Shown: one piece after another, positions 6,601-60,188 of the stretch | Layout: every line of letters begins with the position of its first letter | How positions within the stretch are numbered: the stretch's first letter is position 1 | Source of the DNA: a virus | Taxonomy: Duplodnaviria > Caudoviricetes | DNA length: 64,000 nt | Strand: one strand, 5' to 3' | IMG/VR virus record: IMGVR_UViG_3300028914_000059 | Span: 96,001-160,000 of that record | Program-made: the position numbers and the translations under genes | Notes under the pieces: generated by a model | What the model was told of the DNA's origin: nothing | The model's input: only the letters and a program-made list of their open reading frames with translations | Databases searched by the model: none

Positions 6601-7460
6601 GGTTTAAAAATTCTCCCATCTAATTCCTTCAAATAGTGTCTCATATCTTTGATTGGAGACATTTTCATATTAGACATAAATTGATCCATCAGTTCTGGAG
6701 TTCTATAAGAACTAGCAAAAGTGCCCTTTAGCTTTCTCTTAAATAAGCGATCCCCAGCACGTAAGCCAAGACCAAACTTGATCCCGCTGGGTAATGTACC
6801 TGGAGGAGGCGGTACCAGACTTTCATACATATCACGAACAGCAGACATCATAGCTAAATTCTGTTGCTTAGTGTCTGCCTGCATAAAAGTATCATTCATA
6901 AGTGCTTTGTATCTAGCTTTAAGATCTGCTGCTAAACTATCAGAGATGCTACCTCCGTGAAATTTATCTTCAGCGGCGTTGGCCATAGCTCTCGCAAGGT
7001 TGACAAACTCCTGCGCTTTCTGACTGGCAACATCTGTTATTCCTTGTATTCTCATAGGCTCAGCCCTATATCTTAATGCAGCACTAACTACTGGACTCAA
7101 TGGAGAAGTTGCTGCTCCTATGCCAGCGCCTACACCTGCACCCTTTAATGCATCTATAGAACCACGCCTCAGTGCACCCACTACCTTATCTTCAAAACTG
7201 GCTGGGACTACCTGTTCAGGAATCCACAGATTCCTAGGCTTAATAGTAGTCTTAGCAGCTGCATCGCGCCAACCTTTAATAGCGCCACGAGTTCCATTAA
7301 TACCAGCGCCTATCAAGGCACCTATCCCGGCATTGCGGGGTAAGGCTGCTAATGAGTCTTTGGCCCAGTTAGTCTTAAGAGCGTTTAGTATCTCTAACTT
7401 TTTATCAGCTACAGCCTTATCTGTATATTCAATAAGAGCATCTTTAAATGGATTAGCCAT
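6597..7460 (-). CDS. Glycine-zipper protein (MxNPF start, no obvious KxA leader)
   Basis: AGIGALIGAGING and GAGVGAGIGAA zippers; in the same operon. Confidence 0.75.
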   Translation of the reverse strand: MANPFKDALIEYTDKAVADKKLEILNALKTNWAKDSLAALPRNAGIGALIGAGINGTRGAIKGWRDAAAKTTIKPRNLWIPEQVVPASFEDKVVGALRRGSIDALKGAGVGAGIGAATSPLSPVVSAALRYRAEPMRIQGITDVASQKAQEFVNLARAMANAAEDKFHGGSISDSLAADLKARYKALMNDTFMQADTKQQNLAMMSAVRDMYESLVPPPPGTLPSGIKFGLGLRAGDRLFKRKLKGTFASSYRTPELMDQFMSNMKMSPIKDMRHYLKELDGRIFKP

Positions 7461-7462
7461 AT

Positions 7463-8380
7463 TTAGTAACCACCTTTAAGCTTCTTAGATACATAATACC
7501 AAGGATTGGAATCTCCAGACTGTAAATCACCCCAGATATTATAGAGCGAGGGGTTATTTAACTTCAAAGAATCATGCCCGGATAAACTACTATTTATAAA
7601 ATTAACTCGTTCTTTAACTTTATCCCTAAGAGTAGTGTTAAAATTATCAATATCATCAAGAAATCTCTTGCCGCGCTCCTTACCAGCCCTATAAATATCT
7701 GGATCTGGCGGATTATCTATATGCAAACTGTTAGAAAATCTAAGTTCCGGAACAGTTAAGTGTCCATCTCCAATAACGCCTTTGGTGACAGCTGACAATA
7801 GCTTCTCTTTCCTTCGATTAACCAAATATTCTGGAATGTCTCTAAACATATGGCCATCATTTTTTATTCCTTTAAGTTTCTGCAAAAGATTACTATTATA
7901 ATTACCCAGAGCCCTGTCGGCATAGCTTAAACCTGCGCCGAGCCCACCTCCAACAGCACCGCCAATAAGACTATTTTTCCCATAAGTTCCAATGTTATCT
8001 TTAAAATACTGTTTAATATTATTTCTATTAATTTTTCCAGCGTGCATGTCTCCACGCAATTTTGCCATTGCTGGAAATAGAGCACCTATGCCAGCACCAA
8101 TGGCTGTAGCCTTAGCGCTTGGAGCTACACTTTTCATAGCATCAAACAACCTGGCTCTATTTTCCGGAGAAGCTAACATTTCTCCCATATACTGTAGCCC
8201 AGATGACACATTAAGTTTATCCCCGAGACCAGAGATTGTCTTGTTCTGTAAAAGATTAAACAAATTGGAATTAGCTATAGGACTAGCTACAGCATTACTA
8301 AGTCTTGTAAGACTAGACAAAACACCTGCTGTCTTAACAAATCCTATGGCTAATGTTTTACTTCTATTTTCAATATCCAC
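7463..8380 (-). CDS. Glycine-zipper protein, KxA-leader family
   Basis: Probable GTG start at 8380 (AAGGAG RBS) giving MDIENRSKTLAIGFVKTA|G; ORF track starts it at 8410. Confidence 0.75.
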   Translation of the reverse strand: MDIENRSKTLAIGFVKTAGVLSSLTRLSNAVASPIANSNLFNLLQNKTISGLGDKLNVSSGLQYMGEMLASPENRARLFDAMKSVAPSAKATAIGAGIGALFPAMAKLRGDMHAGKINRNNIKQYFKDNIGTYGKNSLIGGAVGGGLGAGLSYADRALGNYNSNLLQKLKGIKNDGHMFRDIPEYLVNRRKEKLLSAVTKGVIGDGHLTVPELRFSNSLHIDNPPDPDIYRAGKERGKRFLDDIDNFNTTLRDKVKERVNFINSSLSGHDSLKLNNPSLYNIWGDLQSGDSNPWYYVSKKLKGGY

Positions 8381-25248: not shown

Positions 25249-25575
25249 ATGGCTGGATTAGATGCTGAAAAAGAAGAATTTGACCTGATGACTTTATTTG
25301 ATCACTGCGTGCTGTTTACTACCAATAGGATCGACAGGAAAACAGTCCCCAACAATATGTTCATGTATGAGACTAGGGACGGTTCTCAGGATGGCCATAT
25401 CCATGAATTAGCCTACAGGATAATCGCGGATTTCTTTGGAACCGTTATCAGTAAGGAGCCCTTATTACCTACGGATGATCTGGACTCCTACAGCTACGTG
25501 AGTTTCGATGCTTATGGTTTTGAGCCTTGTGGCTCAATAACTTTGCAGCAGTATGCAGATTCTAATTTGCATTAA
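25249..25575 (+). CDS. LPD28-like (large polyvalent protein domain) protein
   Basis: 'LFTTNRIDRKTVP..MFMYETRD...FFGTVIS' pattern, recognised from memory. Confidence 0.6.
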   Translation: MAGLDAEKEEFDLMTLFDHCVLFTTNRIDRKTVPNNMFMYETRDGSQDGHIHELAYRIIADFFGTVISKEPLLPTDDLDSYSYVSFDAYGFEPCGSITLQQYADSNLH

Positions 25576-25587
25576 GGAGGGAAACAA

Positions 25588-26094
25588 ATGAGTGAAAAGG
25601 AAATAGTACAGTGGCTTATGGATAACCAGACAAGAGGCGCAGCTTTTGCCTTTTGTCCTAAAGAGGTGCAGGACTGGATTCAGAATAACTATAAGAAGTA
25701 TCCCATTCTCAATCTCAGTTTGAACAAGGTACCTTTGGATGATTCGGTAACCGATTGGCAGATTCCTGCACTTCCATTACAGTTCAGACTTCCGGCCCAT
25801 AAGTCCTGGGTAGAGTTTGAGATAGATGGAGATGGCGTGTTTATCATAAATCCTGCAGAATTCGGTGGATATGGAGCTACAAAAGCATTCATGTGGTGGG
25901 AGTATCTGGAAGTACTTAAACACATGGAATACGGCCTTACCAATTTTGGTGGATGGCAGTATGAAGATAGTAAACGATGGTATCTTTCTCCAGCGGTTAA
26001 ATTACATAGTGATTTGTGGAACTCGTATGTAATTGAAGAAAGCGAAGACGCAACATCAGTTATACCGGTTAAGATACGATTCTGGAGGGAATAA
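25588..26094 (+). CDS. Hypothetical protein, 'ExEI..L..N..G..F.FMP' family
   Basis: GGWxY and PxKIRFW motifs shared with 26097. Confidence 0.75.
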   Translation: MSEKEIVQWLMDNQTRGAAFAFCPKEVQDWIQNNYKKYPILNLSLNKVPLDDSVTDWQIPALPLQFRLPAHKSWVEFEIDGDGVFIINPAEFGGYGATKAFMWWEYLEVLKHMEYGLTNFGGWQYEDSKRWYLSPAVKLHSDLWNSYVIEESEDATSVIPVKIRFWRE

Positions 26095-31101: not shown

Positions 31102-31783
31102 TATTACATACCTCCGGAGGTTATATATAGTAATATAGGCTACAATTCTGCGTATGTCAATATAGAACTTAATTTCTATAATTCACCGGGTTATAACAGC
31201 CTGGTTATTTTTAGCTATGGTTAGTTAATTTAATTGTCATTGCCTATGAGATATCCAGTACCTAGACCGCCTAAAGCACCAGCACCGAGCCCAGCTGCGC
31301 CTAAAGCAGTGCCTCGATTCCTGAGGCCTTGAACTAAATCAGTCAGTGTATCCCCTGAGGCACCCAAAGTGTCCTTAAGTGTTTTCCCGGCTTTATCTAT
31401 ATTGTCCAACATTTCATATGTTTGGTTATTTATTAGTCCCGGAGCAGGATTAGCTGTAAGTAATCCTGACAGGGAGCTTAAAACACTACTAGTGTGAGCT
31501 TGATCTGCGAGATCAAGGATGTTGTCAATTTCGCTAGCCCCACCTTGCAGTGCGGTTCTTAATTTCTGTTCCAGAGCTTTAGTTTTAGCAATTCCCTTTA
31601 TAGAGTCTATTATCCCAGCTTGTTTTTCCATATCTGCAGAATATCCCAGACAGGCTAATTTATACTGAGCTGCTCTGGCTATATCATTAGCTAATTTATT
31701 AATCATTGTTACATACCCCCAGAGGTTATATATAGTAATATAGGCTACAATTCTGCGTATGTCAATATAGAACTTAATTTCTA
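31060..31783. repeat. About 120-bp direct repeat of promoter + RBS + leader-coding segment
   Basis: About 31060-31178 vs 31665-31783; each contains TTGACA-N17-TATATT on - strand (31132-31160, 31737-31765). Confidence 0.85.
31230..31706 (-). CDS. KxA-leader protein with C-terminal glycine zipper
   Basis: MINKLANDIARAAQ...MEKQA|G; ends GAGALGGLGTGYLIGNDN. Confidence 0.8.
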   Translation of the reverse strand: MINKLANDIARAAQYKLACLGYSADMEKQAGIIDSIKGIAKTKALEQKLRTALQGGASEIDNILDLADQAHTSSVLSSLSGLLTANPAPGLINNQTYEMLDNIDKAGKTLKDTLGASGDTLTDLVQGLRNRGTALGAAGLGAGALGGLGTGYLIGNDN

Positions 31784-31892
31784 CAACCCATCAGGTATAA
31801 GTATAATGTTCAAAGGAAACTTAGATTAAGCTTGCTGCTGGCTGTGCCGGGCAACTTAACGATGAAGCCCTTTAGAACAAATGGTGATTAAT

Positions 31893-32033
31893 ATGGTAAA
31901 AAATATCGTTAAAGTTATTATTGGATTTGCTGCTATGGTCATTTGCTACAAGAAGTATACAGACCTTACAGACTGGACTGTTGAAGCTTTTCTAGAACTG
32001 ATCAATAACAAAAAAGCAGACGATGCTGAATAA
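31893..32033 (+). CDS. Small membrane protein (46 aa)
   Basis: GGTGATTAAT-ATG context downstream of GGTATAAG promoter and leader motif. Confidence 0.6.
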   Translation: MVKNIVKVIIGFAAMVICYKKYTDLTDWTVEAFLELINNKKADDAE

Positions 32034-32761: not shown

Positions 32762-32881
32762 ACCTATTAATTTTTTACATACACACGGGTATAAGTACAG
32801 TATCAAGAGATCAATGATCTGACATTTCTAGCGTGCTAGGGTGCAGACGTTAAATTAGGTCTCTGATACAAGGTGATTAAT

Positions 32882-33292
32882 ATGTCAGGACTCAGTAGAA
32901 CAGAACGTTTTCAACAGTTGTTTAATTTGTTAAATGAACTACAGTTGGTGCCTGGTTCAGAATTTTTTGCTTTCTTGAAGCGGGAAACTCATTCACCCGC
33001 AAGTAACGCCTGCTGGCTGAAGAAAGACAACTTCTGCTACCATATGGTAGTTGATAATCTTCTGGCTCATGAAGGATGGGAACCTGGATGCAGTGTTAGT
33101 TATGGCTATCTAGATCACGACAGAGGTACTTCTCACTTGGTCAATACTTCTGGTTCTTTGAAGTTTAATCCTAAAGATGCTGAAGAAGAAGAACTCGAAG
33201 GTTACGTTAATGCTGACGATGCAGAAGCCGCTAGAACACTTATGGGGCTGTTGCTAGATTATGAAGCAAAATTCAAAATCAGCAAGCTTTGA
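32882..33292 (+). CDS. Hypothetical protein
   Basis: AAGGTGATTAAT-ATG start context. Confidence 0.75.
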   Translation: MSGLSRTERFQQLFNLLNELQLVPGSEFFAFLKRETHSPASNACWLKKDNFCYHMVVDNLLAHEGWEPGCSVSYGYLDHDRGTSHLVNTSGSLKFNPKDAEEEELEGYVNADDAEAARTLMGLLLDYEAKFKISKL

Positions 33293-33362: not shown

Positions 33363-33797
33363 TTAATCATCAATTTCAGAGTATGCTACTACCATTGGAA
33401 TTCTACGCATTTTGTCAGCAGTTCTTTTATTGTAGGCATCGTACTCTTTTTTATTTGGTGATAATCCACCCGCCATTAAACCTAAATTTGTAGTTAATAG
33501 TCCAGAAGCTACCCAATCTTTGGGGTTTATAAATCTACCGGTAGCATGTCCGAGCATGCCCATTCCAGCACCCCTGAGTATAGCTGGTAAGTATAATCTG
33601 TCTTCAGGATCGTTTGCTGCATGTTGGCCCAGGGCCCCCATTAACCCACCTGCAATTCCACCCACACTCAGAGCTGCTAATAGTTCTGGCAGTCTTGAGG
33701 GTGTTTCTATTCCAGCTATTTTTGTCGTTGTTGTGCTTAGAGCAGCTAGTTTAATCTGAGCAGCCCGTGCTATATCGTTTGCTAATTTATCTATCAT
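33363..33797 (-). CDS. KxA-leader glycine-zipper protein
   Basis: MIDKLANDIARAAQIKLA...TKIA|G; GxxxG helices. Confidence 0.75.
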   Translation of the reverse strand: MIDKLANDIARAAQIKLAALSTTTTKIAGIETPSRLPELLAALSVGGIAGGLMGALGQHAANDPEDRLYLPAILRGAGMGMLGHATGRFINPKDWVASGLLTTNLGLMAGGLSPNKKEYDAYNKRTADKMRRIPMVVAYSEIDD

Positions 33798-33967
33798 AGG
33801 ATACAATCCTTTCAGGTATATTTCATATTATATAATATCTCTTAATTTACTTAATATCAAGCCTCTGCACAGGTATAAGTACTCTGATAGAGGACAATAG
33901 ATCTATAATTTCTCGCTGTGCCTGAGTTATAGACGATAAATTAGTCCTTATCAAAAAGGTGATTAAT

Positions 33968-34441
33968 ATGAAGTATAACGTTAAGAAAGAATTAAACAAT
34001 TTCGTCAACTTTACTGGTCGCATGGCTACAGATCTTCCAGCATGTGTTCGTCGTGACTTTTTTAAGTCTCAGGGCGAAAACACCTTTACTGTAGATTTAA
34101 ATAGTGACGAACTTAAAAGACTTTCTTCTAGAATTGGTGTTCAGCTAATTCAGCTTGTAATTCATTTCAACCTCAAGGAAGAAATCGAGCTTATAGCTGA
34201 AGAAAAAGGAAGGGGCATGGGGCAGCCCAGGCTCGTCACTGTTGTAAGCAACAAGTTCGAACCAGGTTTAACCTGGGAAGATGAACATGAAGAAGCTATC
34301 CTTCCTGCTTTGATGGAAGTCAGACAGATATTAGCTGACAGAGTTATCTCTCTAACTAAGAGAGCTCTAAAGCTCTATCCGGAAGATGAAAAAGAGCAGG
34401 AATCCTCTGAAGGCGATGCCTTTTCAGTTTTCAAAAAGTAA
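33968..34441 (+). CDS. Hypothetical protein
   Basis: AAGGTGATTAAT-ATG start context. Confidence 0.75.
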   Translation: MKYNVKKELNNFVNFTGRMATDLPACVRRDFFKSQGENTFTVDLNSDELKRLSSRIGVQLIQLVIHFNLKEEIELIAEEKGRGMGQPRLVTVVSNKFEPGLTWEDEHEEAILPALMEVRQILADRVISLTKRALKLYPEDEKEQESSEGDAFSVFKK

Positions 34442-34842: not shown

Positions 34843-35012
34843 TGCTTTTGATAACTACCGGGGTCTCCCCGGTATTTTTTTATCTGGCACTTAATTTCAT
34901 TTCCTTATTTGTTATAAGATATATGCAATGAAGATATAATACCTCTAAGACTTTTGCTACAGGGCTGTGCCCGGCGGAGTTACTAAAGAAGGTGTTGTAT
35001 CTGGAGATTAAT

Positions 35013-35486
35013 ATGACAAATTCTACTACTACTACTGAACTCAACCCCGTTACTACTTCTGAAAAAATACCTGGATTCTTTACACTTAAAAACGGCCAAA
35101 AAGTCGTTCAGACTTCTGGACATCCATGCGCTTTCAATGACGGCACTGTATTTAGACCTGACGAAATAGAATCTAAAGCTATTAAGGCCTATTTTTCTTT
35201 TCTGACCGTTGAACGCAGCTTCCAGGAAGTCCCCTCTCCTTTTCCAGGCATACGTTACACTCACAGTTCTCAAAAATTGTCAGAAGCAACTGTAAATAAA
35301 CTGCATGAACTTGTAAAGGCTAATCCCGATACTATGTTCTTAGTTCCGTTTATGGTTGAAAGTGCTTTGTGGGAAATGGGTATTCGTGACAAGTTCCCGA
35401 CTCTTGCTGGTGGCAATGCTACACCTGAAACTTCCAGGGAAACCCCAGATAAGAAGATTTGGAACTTGCAGAATATGGCTTACTAA
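35013..35486 (+). CDS. Hypothetical protein
   Basis: GGAGATTAAT-ATG start context. Confidence 0.75.
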   Translation: MTNSTTTTELNPVTTSEKIPGFFTLKNGQKVVQTSGHPCAFNDGTVFRPDEIESKAIKAYFSFLTVERSFQEVPSPFPGIRYTHSSQKLSEATVNKLHELVKANPDTMFLVPFMVESALWEMGIRDKFPTLAGGNATPETSRETPDKKIWNLQNMAY

Positions 35487-35869
35487 TTTCGTTTCCTATC
35501 GGTTGTGGGTCATCCGTCGAAACCCTCCCGCCTTTGGCGGTGGACTTAAATTTTAATAGGAGATAAATGATATGAAAGATATATTGGACCAGGTACTTTA
35601 CTTGGTCGATTCGGCTAACGACAAGCTTAGCCATGAGATGACCGACACGATCTTCTGTCTGGTTGAAGACAAGCTTTGTCAGGCTTCTAGACTAATACAG
35701 CAGCTAAGAAATGAAGCTGGTGAATAGTTAACTCCTCTGGTTCGCCCAGAGTTTTTTTACCTGTAAATTTTATAAATGTCTATAGGTATAAGTAGTATGT
35801 AAAGAGGCAGCTAACTGGCAATAAGTTGTACCGCCAATCAAAAGCTAGCCCCAATCAAAGGTGATTAGT

Positions 35870-36202
35870 ATGCTAATTTGCTTTATTAAGTGTGAAATAA
35901 TGGAACAGCAGGAAAAGTTAACTATTAGACTTAGAAGAAGAACCGCTAAGGTTCAGGAATTAGCTCAGCCATTACTGGCTGCTTTAGACCGGACGGTTGT
36001 TCTAATAAAAGGTGGTAGGTCTGTGCTAGACGAAGATCCGCGCAAGAACCTTCGTCCATGGCTGAGATATGGCCTCCAGTTGATTTCTAAAATTAAGCTA
36101 GTTGACAAGTTAACAAATACTACTCACAAGCTTTCCGCAGGGAAATTGCCGTATGAACTGTTCCAGCTCCCGGCAGCTCCTGTGAGAGCTCCACACTATT
36201 AA
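35870..36202 (+). CDS. Hypothetical basic protein
   Basis: AAGGTGATTAGT-ATG context. Confidence 0.6.
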   Translation: MLICFIKCEIMEQQEKLTIRLRRRTAKVQELAQPLLAALDRTVVLIKGGRSVLDEDPRKNLRPWLRYGLQLISKIKLVDKLTNTTHKLSAGKLPYELFQLPAAPVRAPHY

Positions 36203-38582: not shown

Positions 38583-38652
38583 AAATAATACAGCTATCAG
38601 ATGACAAATCTGGTAGCTGTATTTTCTTTAATTAAGGAGGCAAACAAATACT
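38581..38652 (-). ncRNA. Putative anti-Shine-Dalgarno small RNA
   Basis: TTGACG-N18-TATATA promoter (38659-38688), GTATTTGTTTGCCTCCTTAAT, then terminator hairpin AATACAGCTA/TAGCTGTATT. Confidence 0.45.
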
Positions 38653-59479: not shown

Positions 59480-59551
59480 AGTTAAGGCCCTCCTTTCGGT
59501 ATAAGTTATCTGTAGGCAAACAGATACACTTTATTTAAAGGAGGGGCTATT

Positions 59552-59794
59552 ATGAGACGCAGCCCAGAAGTGTATCCATTCAAGCTCAGCGATATGGGAA
59601 TGCCCTTGGAGGGCAAGCCCAAAGAAATTGTTGAGCTATTTATTAGCTTTGCCAACAAAATAGGTAAAGCTATAGAGAGGGAGTTGACAGAATCAGCTCC
59701 TTCTAAGAAAGAGTTCTTTCAGAATTGGGAAAGAGCCCGTAAATGGTATAGAGAAGCCAGGCGAGCTAAAAAGTTTTTGAAAGAACATTACTGA
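59552..59794 (+). CDS. Hypothetical protein
   Basis: AAGGAGG RBS, GGTATAAG promoter 59498. Confidence 0.7.
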   Translation: MRRSPEVYPFKLSDMGMPLEGKPKEIVELFISFANKIGKAIERELTESAPSKKEFFQNWERARKWYREARRAKKFLKEHY

Positions 59795-59804
59795 TGCATG
59801 CCTG

Positions 59805-59936
59805 GGGAGCAGCTCCTTTAGAGTGACCTCTACAAGCGGTCGGAACTCTGGACAAGGAACTGCTCCCTTGTCATATTTAATCACCTTCATTAGAGGGGGC
59901 CAATAGAGATATCTCTATCGGTCTCCTCTCTTTTTA
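59805..59936 (+). ncRNA. Putative 3'-UTR small RNA with anti-initiation-region linker
   Basis: Long hairpin GGGAGCAG/CTGCTCCC, linker TTGTCATATTTAATCACCTTCATT, terminator AGAGGGGGCC/GGTCTCCTCT + T-run. Confidence 0.6.
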
Positions 59937-59996
59937 TTTCATATTTTTAGGTATAAGTGAATTGTTCCGGAACTTAAATATATAAAGGAGGCAAAA

Positions 59997-60188
59997 ATGG
60001 AAGGAACAATAATAAACAAGGCCTTGGCCAAGAGATTTGAAAATAGTACTCTGGGGGATATTCTATTCAGTAACGCGAAGTCTGTAAAAAAACATATCAG
60101 CTCAGAATATAGACCTAAGGCACCCAGATGGTTTCAACGCCATCAAAGTAAACGAATAGCTGAAGGCTTTAAAGTTCCCAACGAATAA
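59997..60188 (+). CDS. Hypothetical protein
   Basis: AAGGAGG RBS, promoter 59950. Confidence 0.65.
   Translation: MEGTIINKALAKRFENSTLGDILFSNAKSVKKHISSEYRPKAPRWFQRHQSKRIAEGFKVPNE

Follow-up and report, generated by a model that had tools for sequence, protein, structure and literature searches.

A conserved 3′UTR linker in an uncultivated phage: a candidate anti-RBS seed complementary to a rare class of translation start regions

The 3′ untranslated region (3′UTR) of an 80-aa gene in an uncultivated phage contains a long hairpin and an intrinsic terminator that are separated by a single-stranded linker. A 23-nt non-coding stretch that reaches into this linker is the most constrained sequence in the locus, and it is complementary to the translation start regions of five other genes in the same genome. 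We regard a trans-acting anti-RBS seed in this 3′UTR as the best explanation of these features, and we advance it tentatively; the conservation result itself holds under any mechanism. The virus contig that carries the locus comprises 180,070 bp (41% G+C). We analyzed a stretch of 64,000 nt from it, termed “the window” (bases 96001–160000), and the positions given below are those of the window unless the genome is named. Public phage records contained no DNA or protein match to the locus or to the neighboring giant gene, and no relatives of the 80-aa, 63-aa or DUF7695 proteins were found in IMG/VR.

Transcription unit and fold of the element

The element lies within a block of + strand genes, between the 80-aa ORF (59552–59794, + strand) and a 63-aa ORF (59997–60188). 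The motif GGTATAAGT stands at 59498–59506 on the + strand, inside a 19-nt invariant run (59492–59510) ahead of the 80-aa gene, and a motif scan placed the next + strand copy at 59950–59958, ahead of the gene at 59997–60188. A whole-genome scan located 15 copies of GGTATAAGT. Because every one of them is on the + strand and ahead of a + strand gene, we read the motif as a phage promoter class. No promoter motif was found in 59552–59798, and none is kept in the relatives described below between the 80-aa ORF and the first hairpin. With one GGTATAAGT ahead of the 80-aa gene at 59498 and the next at 59950, the element is, as judged from promoter placement, the 3′UTR of a monocistronic transcription unit that consists of promoter, short leader, 80-aa gene and element. 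The first-pass annotation of this DNA had presented the element as an independent small RNA. That view is not supported: the element belongs to the 3′UTR of the gene at 59552–59794, and a discrete small RNA would need processing, since no promoter of its own was found.

Two further features of this region deserve mention. The copies of GGTATAAGT span 23733–59951 in the window (119733–162931 in the genome), and the T-run of a terminator together with ACCTGTTAATTTT is often found just upstream of them. Neighboring minus-strand genes have TTGACA-17-TATATT promoters of the sigma-70 type instead, and there thus appear to be two promoter classes, split by strand. The 80-aa protein matched nothing in Pfam or PHROG; in the structure model (pLDDT 76), helices at residues 24–47 and 52–79 form a plain two-helix hairpin.

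The minimum free energy of the + strand fold is −60.7 kcal/mol (z = −5.8 vs. shuffles). In agreement with the original description of two strong hairpins joined by a single-stranded linker, this fold contains two hairpins and leaves 59875–59891 unpaired. Hairpin 1 (59798–59874, + strand) is long and imperfect, with a base that is conserved in sequence and an apex that is variable or replaced. The second hairpin is an intrinsic terminator (59892–59940, + strand), in which the stem at 59892–59929 is followed by a T-run. A GC-rich stem and U-run after a gene are what an ordinary terminator would provide, and 59892–59940 has both; the linker upstream of it is not free sequence. CATATTTAATCACCTT occupies 59872–59887 and reads AAGGTGATTAAATATG in reverse complement. 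For the CAT, weak pairing is predicted with an ATG (59798–59800) at the base of hairpin 1. At the gathering score, Rfam returned only tRNAs in the window, and the locus yielded only chance-level matches (E up to 10).

Conservation among metagenome relatives

Relatives of the 80-aa protein were retrieved from metagenome assemblies at 80–90% identity, and the surrounding DNA resolved into ten distinct 3′ regions; some of the ten are close to one another, and the samples largely carry rumen- or gut-style labels. The JGI metagenomes supplied one further relative, L021. The arrangement of hairpin, linker and terminator is kept in all ten distinct relatives, including those in which the hairpin apex has been replaced. 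Standard pairs occupy 97.8% of the hairpin 1 cells and 91.8% of the terminator cells when the + strand is read, compared with 88.8% and 78.8%, respectively, for the minus strand. Because the G-U pairs favor it, the structure is placed on the + strand.

The run at 59866–59888 (+ strand; CCTTGTCATATTTAATCACCTTC) is identical in every sequence (π = 0.000; ten relatives). No other invariant run in the locus alignment is as long as these 23 nt, the one at the promoter being shorter (19 nt), and none of 20,000 permutations produced a run of this length. The rest of the locus is far from static: 49% of the alignment columns vary, and π is 0.28 at third codon positions (i.e., a 28% difference). In the terminator, π is 0.40, and both sides have changed in 9 of 15 pairs with pairing kept. 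The apex of hairpin 1 (π = 0.37) has been replaced outright in L010, L011 and L013, while the base of the same hairpin has 11 of 18 pairs that never vary and a single compensatory pair (A-U to G-C). From the invariance of 23 nt amid a varying terminator, apex and set of third codon positions, we conclude that the linker is under very strong purifying selection. The invariant run, predicted to be unpaired from 59875 onward, thus has the features of a conserved single-stranded seed and is treated here as a candidate for one.

Beyond these relatives, the 23-mer was absent from the GTDB genomes, and a 21-mer scan of IMG/VR found nothing. An 18-mer scan of IMG/VR detected only unrelated viral contigs (five), in which the context of the string suggests a gene start read in reverse complement.

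The element and the 80-aa gene stay together in two downstream contexts, one like that of the window and the other with a cassette of ~830 nt after the terminator. This extra cassette directly follows the element in L010 (1599–2481), L021 (2640–3500), L012 and L017, and the window is without it. It consists of a GGTATAAGT promoter and then ~830 nt that contain no called gene and have no Rfam match at the gathering score; it may represent a large non-coding RNA or an unannotated gene.

Complementarity to a rare class of start regions

Gene starts were predicted with a simple heuristic, which yielded 216 of them in the genome. Most have a Shine-Dalgarno (SD) sequence of the AAGGAG type. The GGTGATTAATATG type is found at only four or five of the 216, all within 4 kb. 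At the 3′ end of 16S rRNA, the anti-SD sequence includes AUCACC, to which GGTGAT is complementary, and GGTGAT is a normal part of the extended SD. The earlier characterization of this class as using a “non-standard” RBS was therefore too strong; it is an ordinary extended SD variant that is rare here.

The linker and target positions reported in the first-pass annotation were correct, and all five of the starts that it named were confirmed. Relative to AAGGTGATTAATATG, the reverse complement of the linker, AAGGTGATTAAATATG, contains an additional A; this A corresponds to a bulged U in the linker and makes AAGGTGATTAAATATG one base longer than the start regions at 32882 and 33968. AAGGTGATTAATATG occurs exactly at 32870–32884, the start of a 136-aa gene (32882; rank 1 of 216; ΔΔG −14.8 kcal/mol), and at 33956–33970, the start of a 157-aa gene (33968; rank 3 of 216; ΔΔG −15.9 kcal/mol). 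With one mismatch, it is present at 31881–31895, the start of a 46-aa gene (31893; rank 8; ΔΔG −11.6 kcal/mol), and at 35858–35872, the start of a 110-aa gene (35870; rank 7; ΔΔG −13.9 kcal/mol), where the mismatch results in a G-U pair. The fifth site (35003–35019; GGAGATTAATATGACAA) is the start of a further 157-aa gene (35013; rank 4; ΔΔG −13.9 kcal/mol). GAGATTAATATGACAA is present there, and the pairing with the linker continues past the AUG into ACAA. At each of the five sites, a + strand ORF begins behind a leader of roughly 70–90 nt. Four of the five starts are located 84–98 nt downstream of GGTATAAGT, and the gene at 35013 has the variant GTTATAAG. In four of the five leaders, the start is predicted to be unpaired, just past a leader hairpin. 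These candidate targets belong to other transcription units, 24–28 kb from the element.

Matches of the AAGGTGATTAATATG type number four, compared with 0.33 expected from shuffles. The 11-mer AAGGTGATTAA occurs three times on both strands of the 180-kb genome (0.18 expected), twice at targets and once at the locus; GGTGATTAA has five occurrences in the genome, three at class starts and one at the locus. The best non-self partner of the linker genome-wide is the start region at 32882 (−24.8 kcal/mol), and the five named genes rank 1, 3, 4, 7 and 8 among the 216 predicted starts. In terms of duplex energy, however, the five best starts were equalled by 4% of shuffled linkers, by 22% of random genomic 23-mers and by 58% of the reverse complements of other genes’ start regions, and chance sites in coding DNA reach −23.8 kcal/mol vs. 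the −24.8 kcal/mol of the best candidate. The two measures are thus at odds. Because exact matching is unlikely by chance and the energy is unremarkable, complementarity alone would not carry the claim.

When the full 3′UTR was cofolded with the full leaders, all hairpins remained intact, and the linker paired with the start region in all five genes. The ΔΔG values ranged from −11.6 to −15.9 kcal/mol for these genes, compared with −3.8 to −2.8 kcal/mol for three control starts of the AAGGAG type; the value was 0.0 for a fourth control stretch, which ended short of its start codon. Pairing of the linker with the 5′UTR and RBS of its own gene (ΔΔG −3.8 kcal/mol) or with the leader of the next gene was weak and not conserved. 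A separate start, AAAGGTGGTTACTAAATATG (7440–7465, minus strand; genome 103460), ranked second of the 216 at −19.3 kcal/mol. It belongs to a 287-aa minus-strand gene starting at 7460, which is possibly a further target outside the named class.

The class can be followed into the relatives. The core GGTGATTA is kept at most of the homologous genes, even where the leader is unrelated. The starts read AAAAGGTGATTAACATG and ATGGTGATTGTTATG in L019, ATGGTGATTATATG in L022 and ATGGTGGTTAATATG in L018; in L020, ATGGTGATTAACATG occurs twice, in one case with a leader that bears no relation to that of the window. L010, whose linker is unchanged, was recovered from the sample that also gave L020. Complementarity to the linker is kept accordingly, with the core present in L019, L020 and L022 and single variants in L018 and L019. 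The variants comprise a T-to-C change (L019 and L020), the loss of one A (L022), GGTGGTT (L018) and GATTGTT (L019). In L020, the lost U-A pair is offset by ATGACA/UGUCAU pairing, such that the duplex energy is −18.6 to −18.9 kcal/mol. The core starts of the relatives pair with the invariant run at −15 to −19 kcal/mol, compared with −5 to −10 kcal/mol for six other called starts of L020; two GGTGA-type starts there reach −17.0 and −18.4 kcal/mol. Taken together, these pairing footprints extend over the whole invariant run, from UUGUCAU (which pairs with AUGACAA) to AAUCACCUU.

The target spacer changes from TAATATG to TAACATG, TATATG or TGTTATG, and the linker stays constant. As the seed never changes, the changes in the targets are unmatched, and no compensatory co-variation of seed and target was observed among the relatives; with an invariant seed, this comparison has low power. 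A point against the trans-acting reading is that, although the 49-kb contig behind L019 has class genes, no 80-aa homologue is recorded on a contig of that size.

Several observations were made in and around the class genes. The ~80-nt leader of the 46-aa gene (31803–31880) is almost invariant in L019 and L020, including GCTGCTGGCTGTGCCGGGCAAC, and the coding sequence diverges quickly after it; a conserved cis-regulatory leader RNA is therefore suggested. Two minus-strand genes encoding ~150 aa (31230–31706 and 33363–33806) have near-identical 5′ ends and upstream promoter blocks, and each is arranged back-to-back with a class gene. Part of the likeness among class starts may for this reason reflect a duplicated divergent-promoter module. 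Elsewhere, TTAAGGAGGCAAACAAATAC (38629–38650), situated after a terminator, closely resembles the start of the gene at 25588 (25571–25590; TTAAGGAGGGAAACAAATG) and is without an ATG and without an ORF. Decay of a former start region could account for it, or it may belong to another proposed anti-RBS unit.

Possible functions of the conserved linker

How might such a linker act? In the explanation that we favor, a module at the 3′ end of the 80-aa mRNA, composed of the long hairpin, the invariant unpaired UUGUCAUAUUUAAUCACCUUC and the intrinsic terminator, would accumulate as RNA and pair in trans with the SD, spacer and AUG of four or five phage genes that share GGTGATTAA(T/C)ATG. The duplex between seed and start would compete with the 30S subunit in vivo and thereby lower translation of the targets. 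The active form could be the full 80-aa mRNA or a processed, 3′UTR-derived RNA of ~145 nt. The reverse complement of the seed amounts to the full class start region, down to ATG-ACA, which suggests that the seed may have originated when such a region was duplicated in inverted orientation. The putative regulator and its candidate targets fall under the same promoter class; this weighs against the anti-RBS reading, as the regulatory logic is consequently not obvious. We also entertain a fuller version, possible if somewhat doubtful, in which a small regulon is marked by a start region reserved for its members (GGTGATTAAYATG, preceded by a structured leader), and a single seed, born by inverted duplication and carried in a 3′UTR of the same promoter class, controls all of them.

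The other explanations differ widely in how well they accommodate these data. That this is an ordinary terminator region with complementarity arising by chance is hard to credit: SD-like and anti-SD-like strings are common near terminators, and the energy-based controls were unremarkable, but 23 invariant nt across ten diverged relatives rule out neutrality, and the exact-match statistics are also contrary. A site acting at the DNA level, be it an operator shared with the class genes, the edge at which a mobile cassette recombines or an extended −10 promoter of the sigma-70 type (TGGACA-17-TGTCATATT), appears quite improbable. A promoter-like match with TG before its second hexamer does exist at 59849–59877, and the two downstream configurations diverge shortly past the element, after the terminator. 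Yet the −35-like hexamer varies (TGGACA, TGAATA or TGAACA; absent in L013), and a promoter in this position would transcribe only the terminator. The start motif is situated at +85 to +95 relative to the class promoters, whereas here it is ~75 nt upstream of the next promoter and in the opposite orientation; moreover, the element is unique in the genome and is not a repeated cassette end. It is likewise improbable that AAGGTGATTAAATATG provides the functional RBS and start codon of a minus-strand micro-ORF (MTREQF…), or that it is a recently disabled gene start. Its favorable points are that the reverse complement is a textbook start region, that the invariant run corresponds exactly to −17 to +9 of such a start, and that the context of the 18-mer in the five unrelated viral contigs reads, by look, as a gene start. 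The ORF from this ATG has only 14 codons, as originally stated. Across relatives, it has 14, 12 or 7 codons with L-to-P and E-to-R changes, and no peptide is conserved; its AUG directly precedes a very stable hairpin; and, as the two downstream contexts have different flanking DNA, conservation of a minus-strand promoter is impossible. These properties make a functional micro-ORF unlikely. The G-U pairs and a gene block that is entirely on the + strand, along with all 15 copies of GGTATAAGT, argue in the same direction. Comparison of the minus strand of the locus with the target leaders revealed no homology beyond the RBS and ATG. We also considered a type I toxin-antitoxin system and rejected it: the peptide MTREQFLVQSSDRL is polar, not hydrophobic as such a toxin would be, and has 7 or 12 codons in relatives.

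The main rival is a cis-acting site in the 3′UTR of the 80-aa mRNA, recognized by an RNA-binding protein of the phage or host or by an RNase, or else controlling the adjacent terminator; in that case, its resemblance to an anti-RBS would not serve any target. We judge this alternative rather unlikely but deserving of serious attention. Both arms of the base of hairpin 1 are conserved in sequence, and their 11 of 18 invariable pairs would fit a protein-binding site equally well. Furthermore, the module is invariably linked to the 80-aa gene, the search for a separate promoter found none, and seed and targets do not co-vary. The purine-rich 5′ arm of the terminator could also be a partner for the CCUUC of the linker, a potential only partly kept in relatives. 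What a cis-acting site leaves unexplained is that an invariant 23-mer should be the near-exact reverse complement of a rare start class in the same genome, when the shared 11-mer is expected only 0.18 times. Action on the gene’s own 5′UTR and RBS fits poorly as well, for these vary among relatives and lack complementarity to the linker (ΔΔG −3.8 kcal/mol).

As a candidate trans-acting anti-RBS seed, the element can be compared with known regulators. Base-pairing sRNAs derived from 3′UTRs are established in bacteria, e.g., CpxQ, DapZ and SroC. Like them, the element is located in the 3′UTR of a protein-coding mRNA and shares its intrinsic terminator (stem 59892–59929 and T-run, with 9 of 15 pairs compensatory). 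It also has a conserved, unpaired seed beside that terminator, and its predicted targets are translation start regions. It differs from them in residing in a large phage of the lytic type and in being predicted to act on the phage’s own genes. A 3′UTR-derived sRNA that acts on a phage mRNA, CisR, has been described (PMC13250501). The host of the phage analyzed here appears to be of the Firmicutes-like SD type.

Within phages, the c4 antisense RNA of P1/P7 blocks a phage RBS by pairing (review PMC12197685). The element resembles c4 in that a phage RNA is predicted to pair around the RBS of phage genes by means of a stretch displayed by structure. Whereas c4 and its target derive from one transcript, from which c4 is cleaved, and c4 pairs through two loop segments, the element’s predicted targets are on other transcripts 24–28 kb away, and its seed is a single linear one. 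Membership in the P1/P7 c4 family was rejected, there being no Rfam match at the gathering score and targets on other transcription units. Among the C-rich anti-SD RNAs of Firmicutes (RsaE/RoxS, the hairpins of RNAIII and the icaR 3′UTR), an unpaired pyrimidine motif pairs with the SD of several mRNAs. The element, too, has an unpaired anti-SD motif containing pyrimidines. Its seed, however, is AU-rich, ends in CACCUU and covers SD, spacer and AUG over 15–20 nt. Because of this coverage, it should be specific for one class of start regions, not for G-rich SDs generally. The icaR 3′UTR acts on its own 5′UTR, a mode of action that the weak cofold does not support for the element. By analogy, the element would work like a 3′UTR-derived base-pairing sRNA and would not be a new kind of regulator.

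What is new here is the comparison of ten relatives, in which the architecture is kept, the terminator covaries and the linker is invariant. To our knowledge, virulent or large phages have so far yielded few base-pairing RNAs, and there are hardly any examples of such RNAs regulating the phage’s own mRNAs in trans. If the proposed pairing is real, the system is a compact and testable case in which the sequences of the one seed and all five start regions are known. It would constitute post-transcriptional control of timing in an uncultivated phage, and it would link the conserved structured leader of the class genes to a regulator. If the fuller proposal is true, this virus would contain a regulon that is encoded in its ribosome-binding sites.
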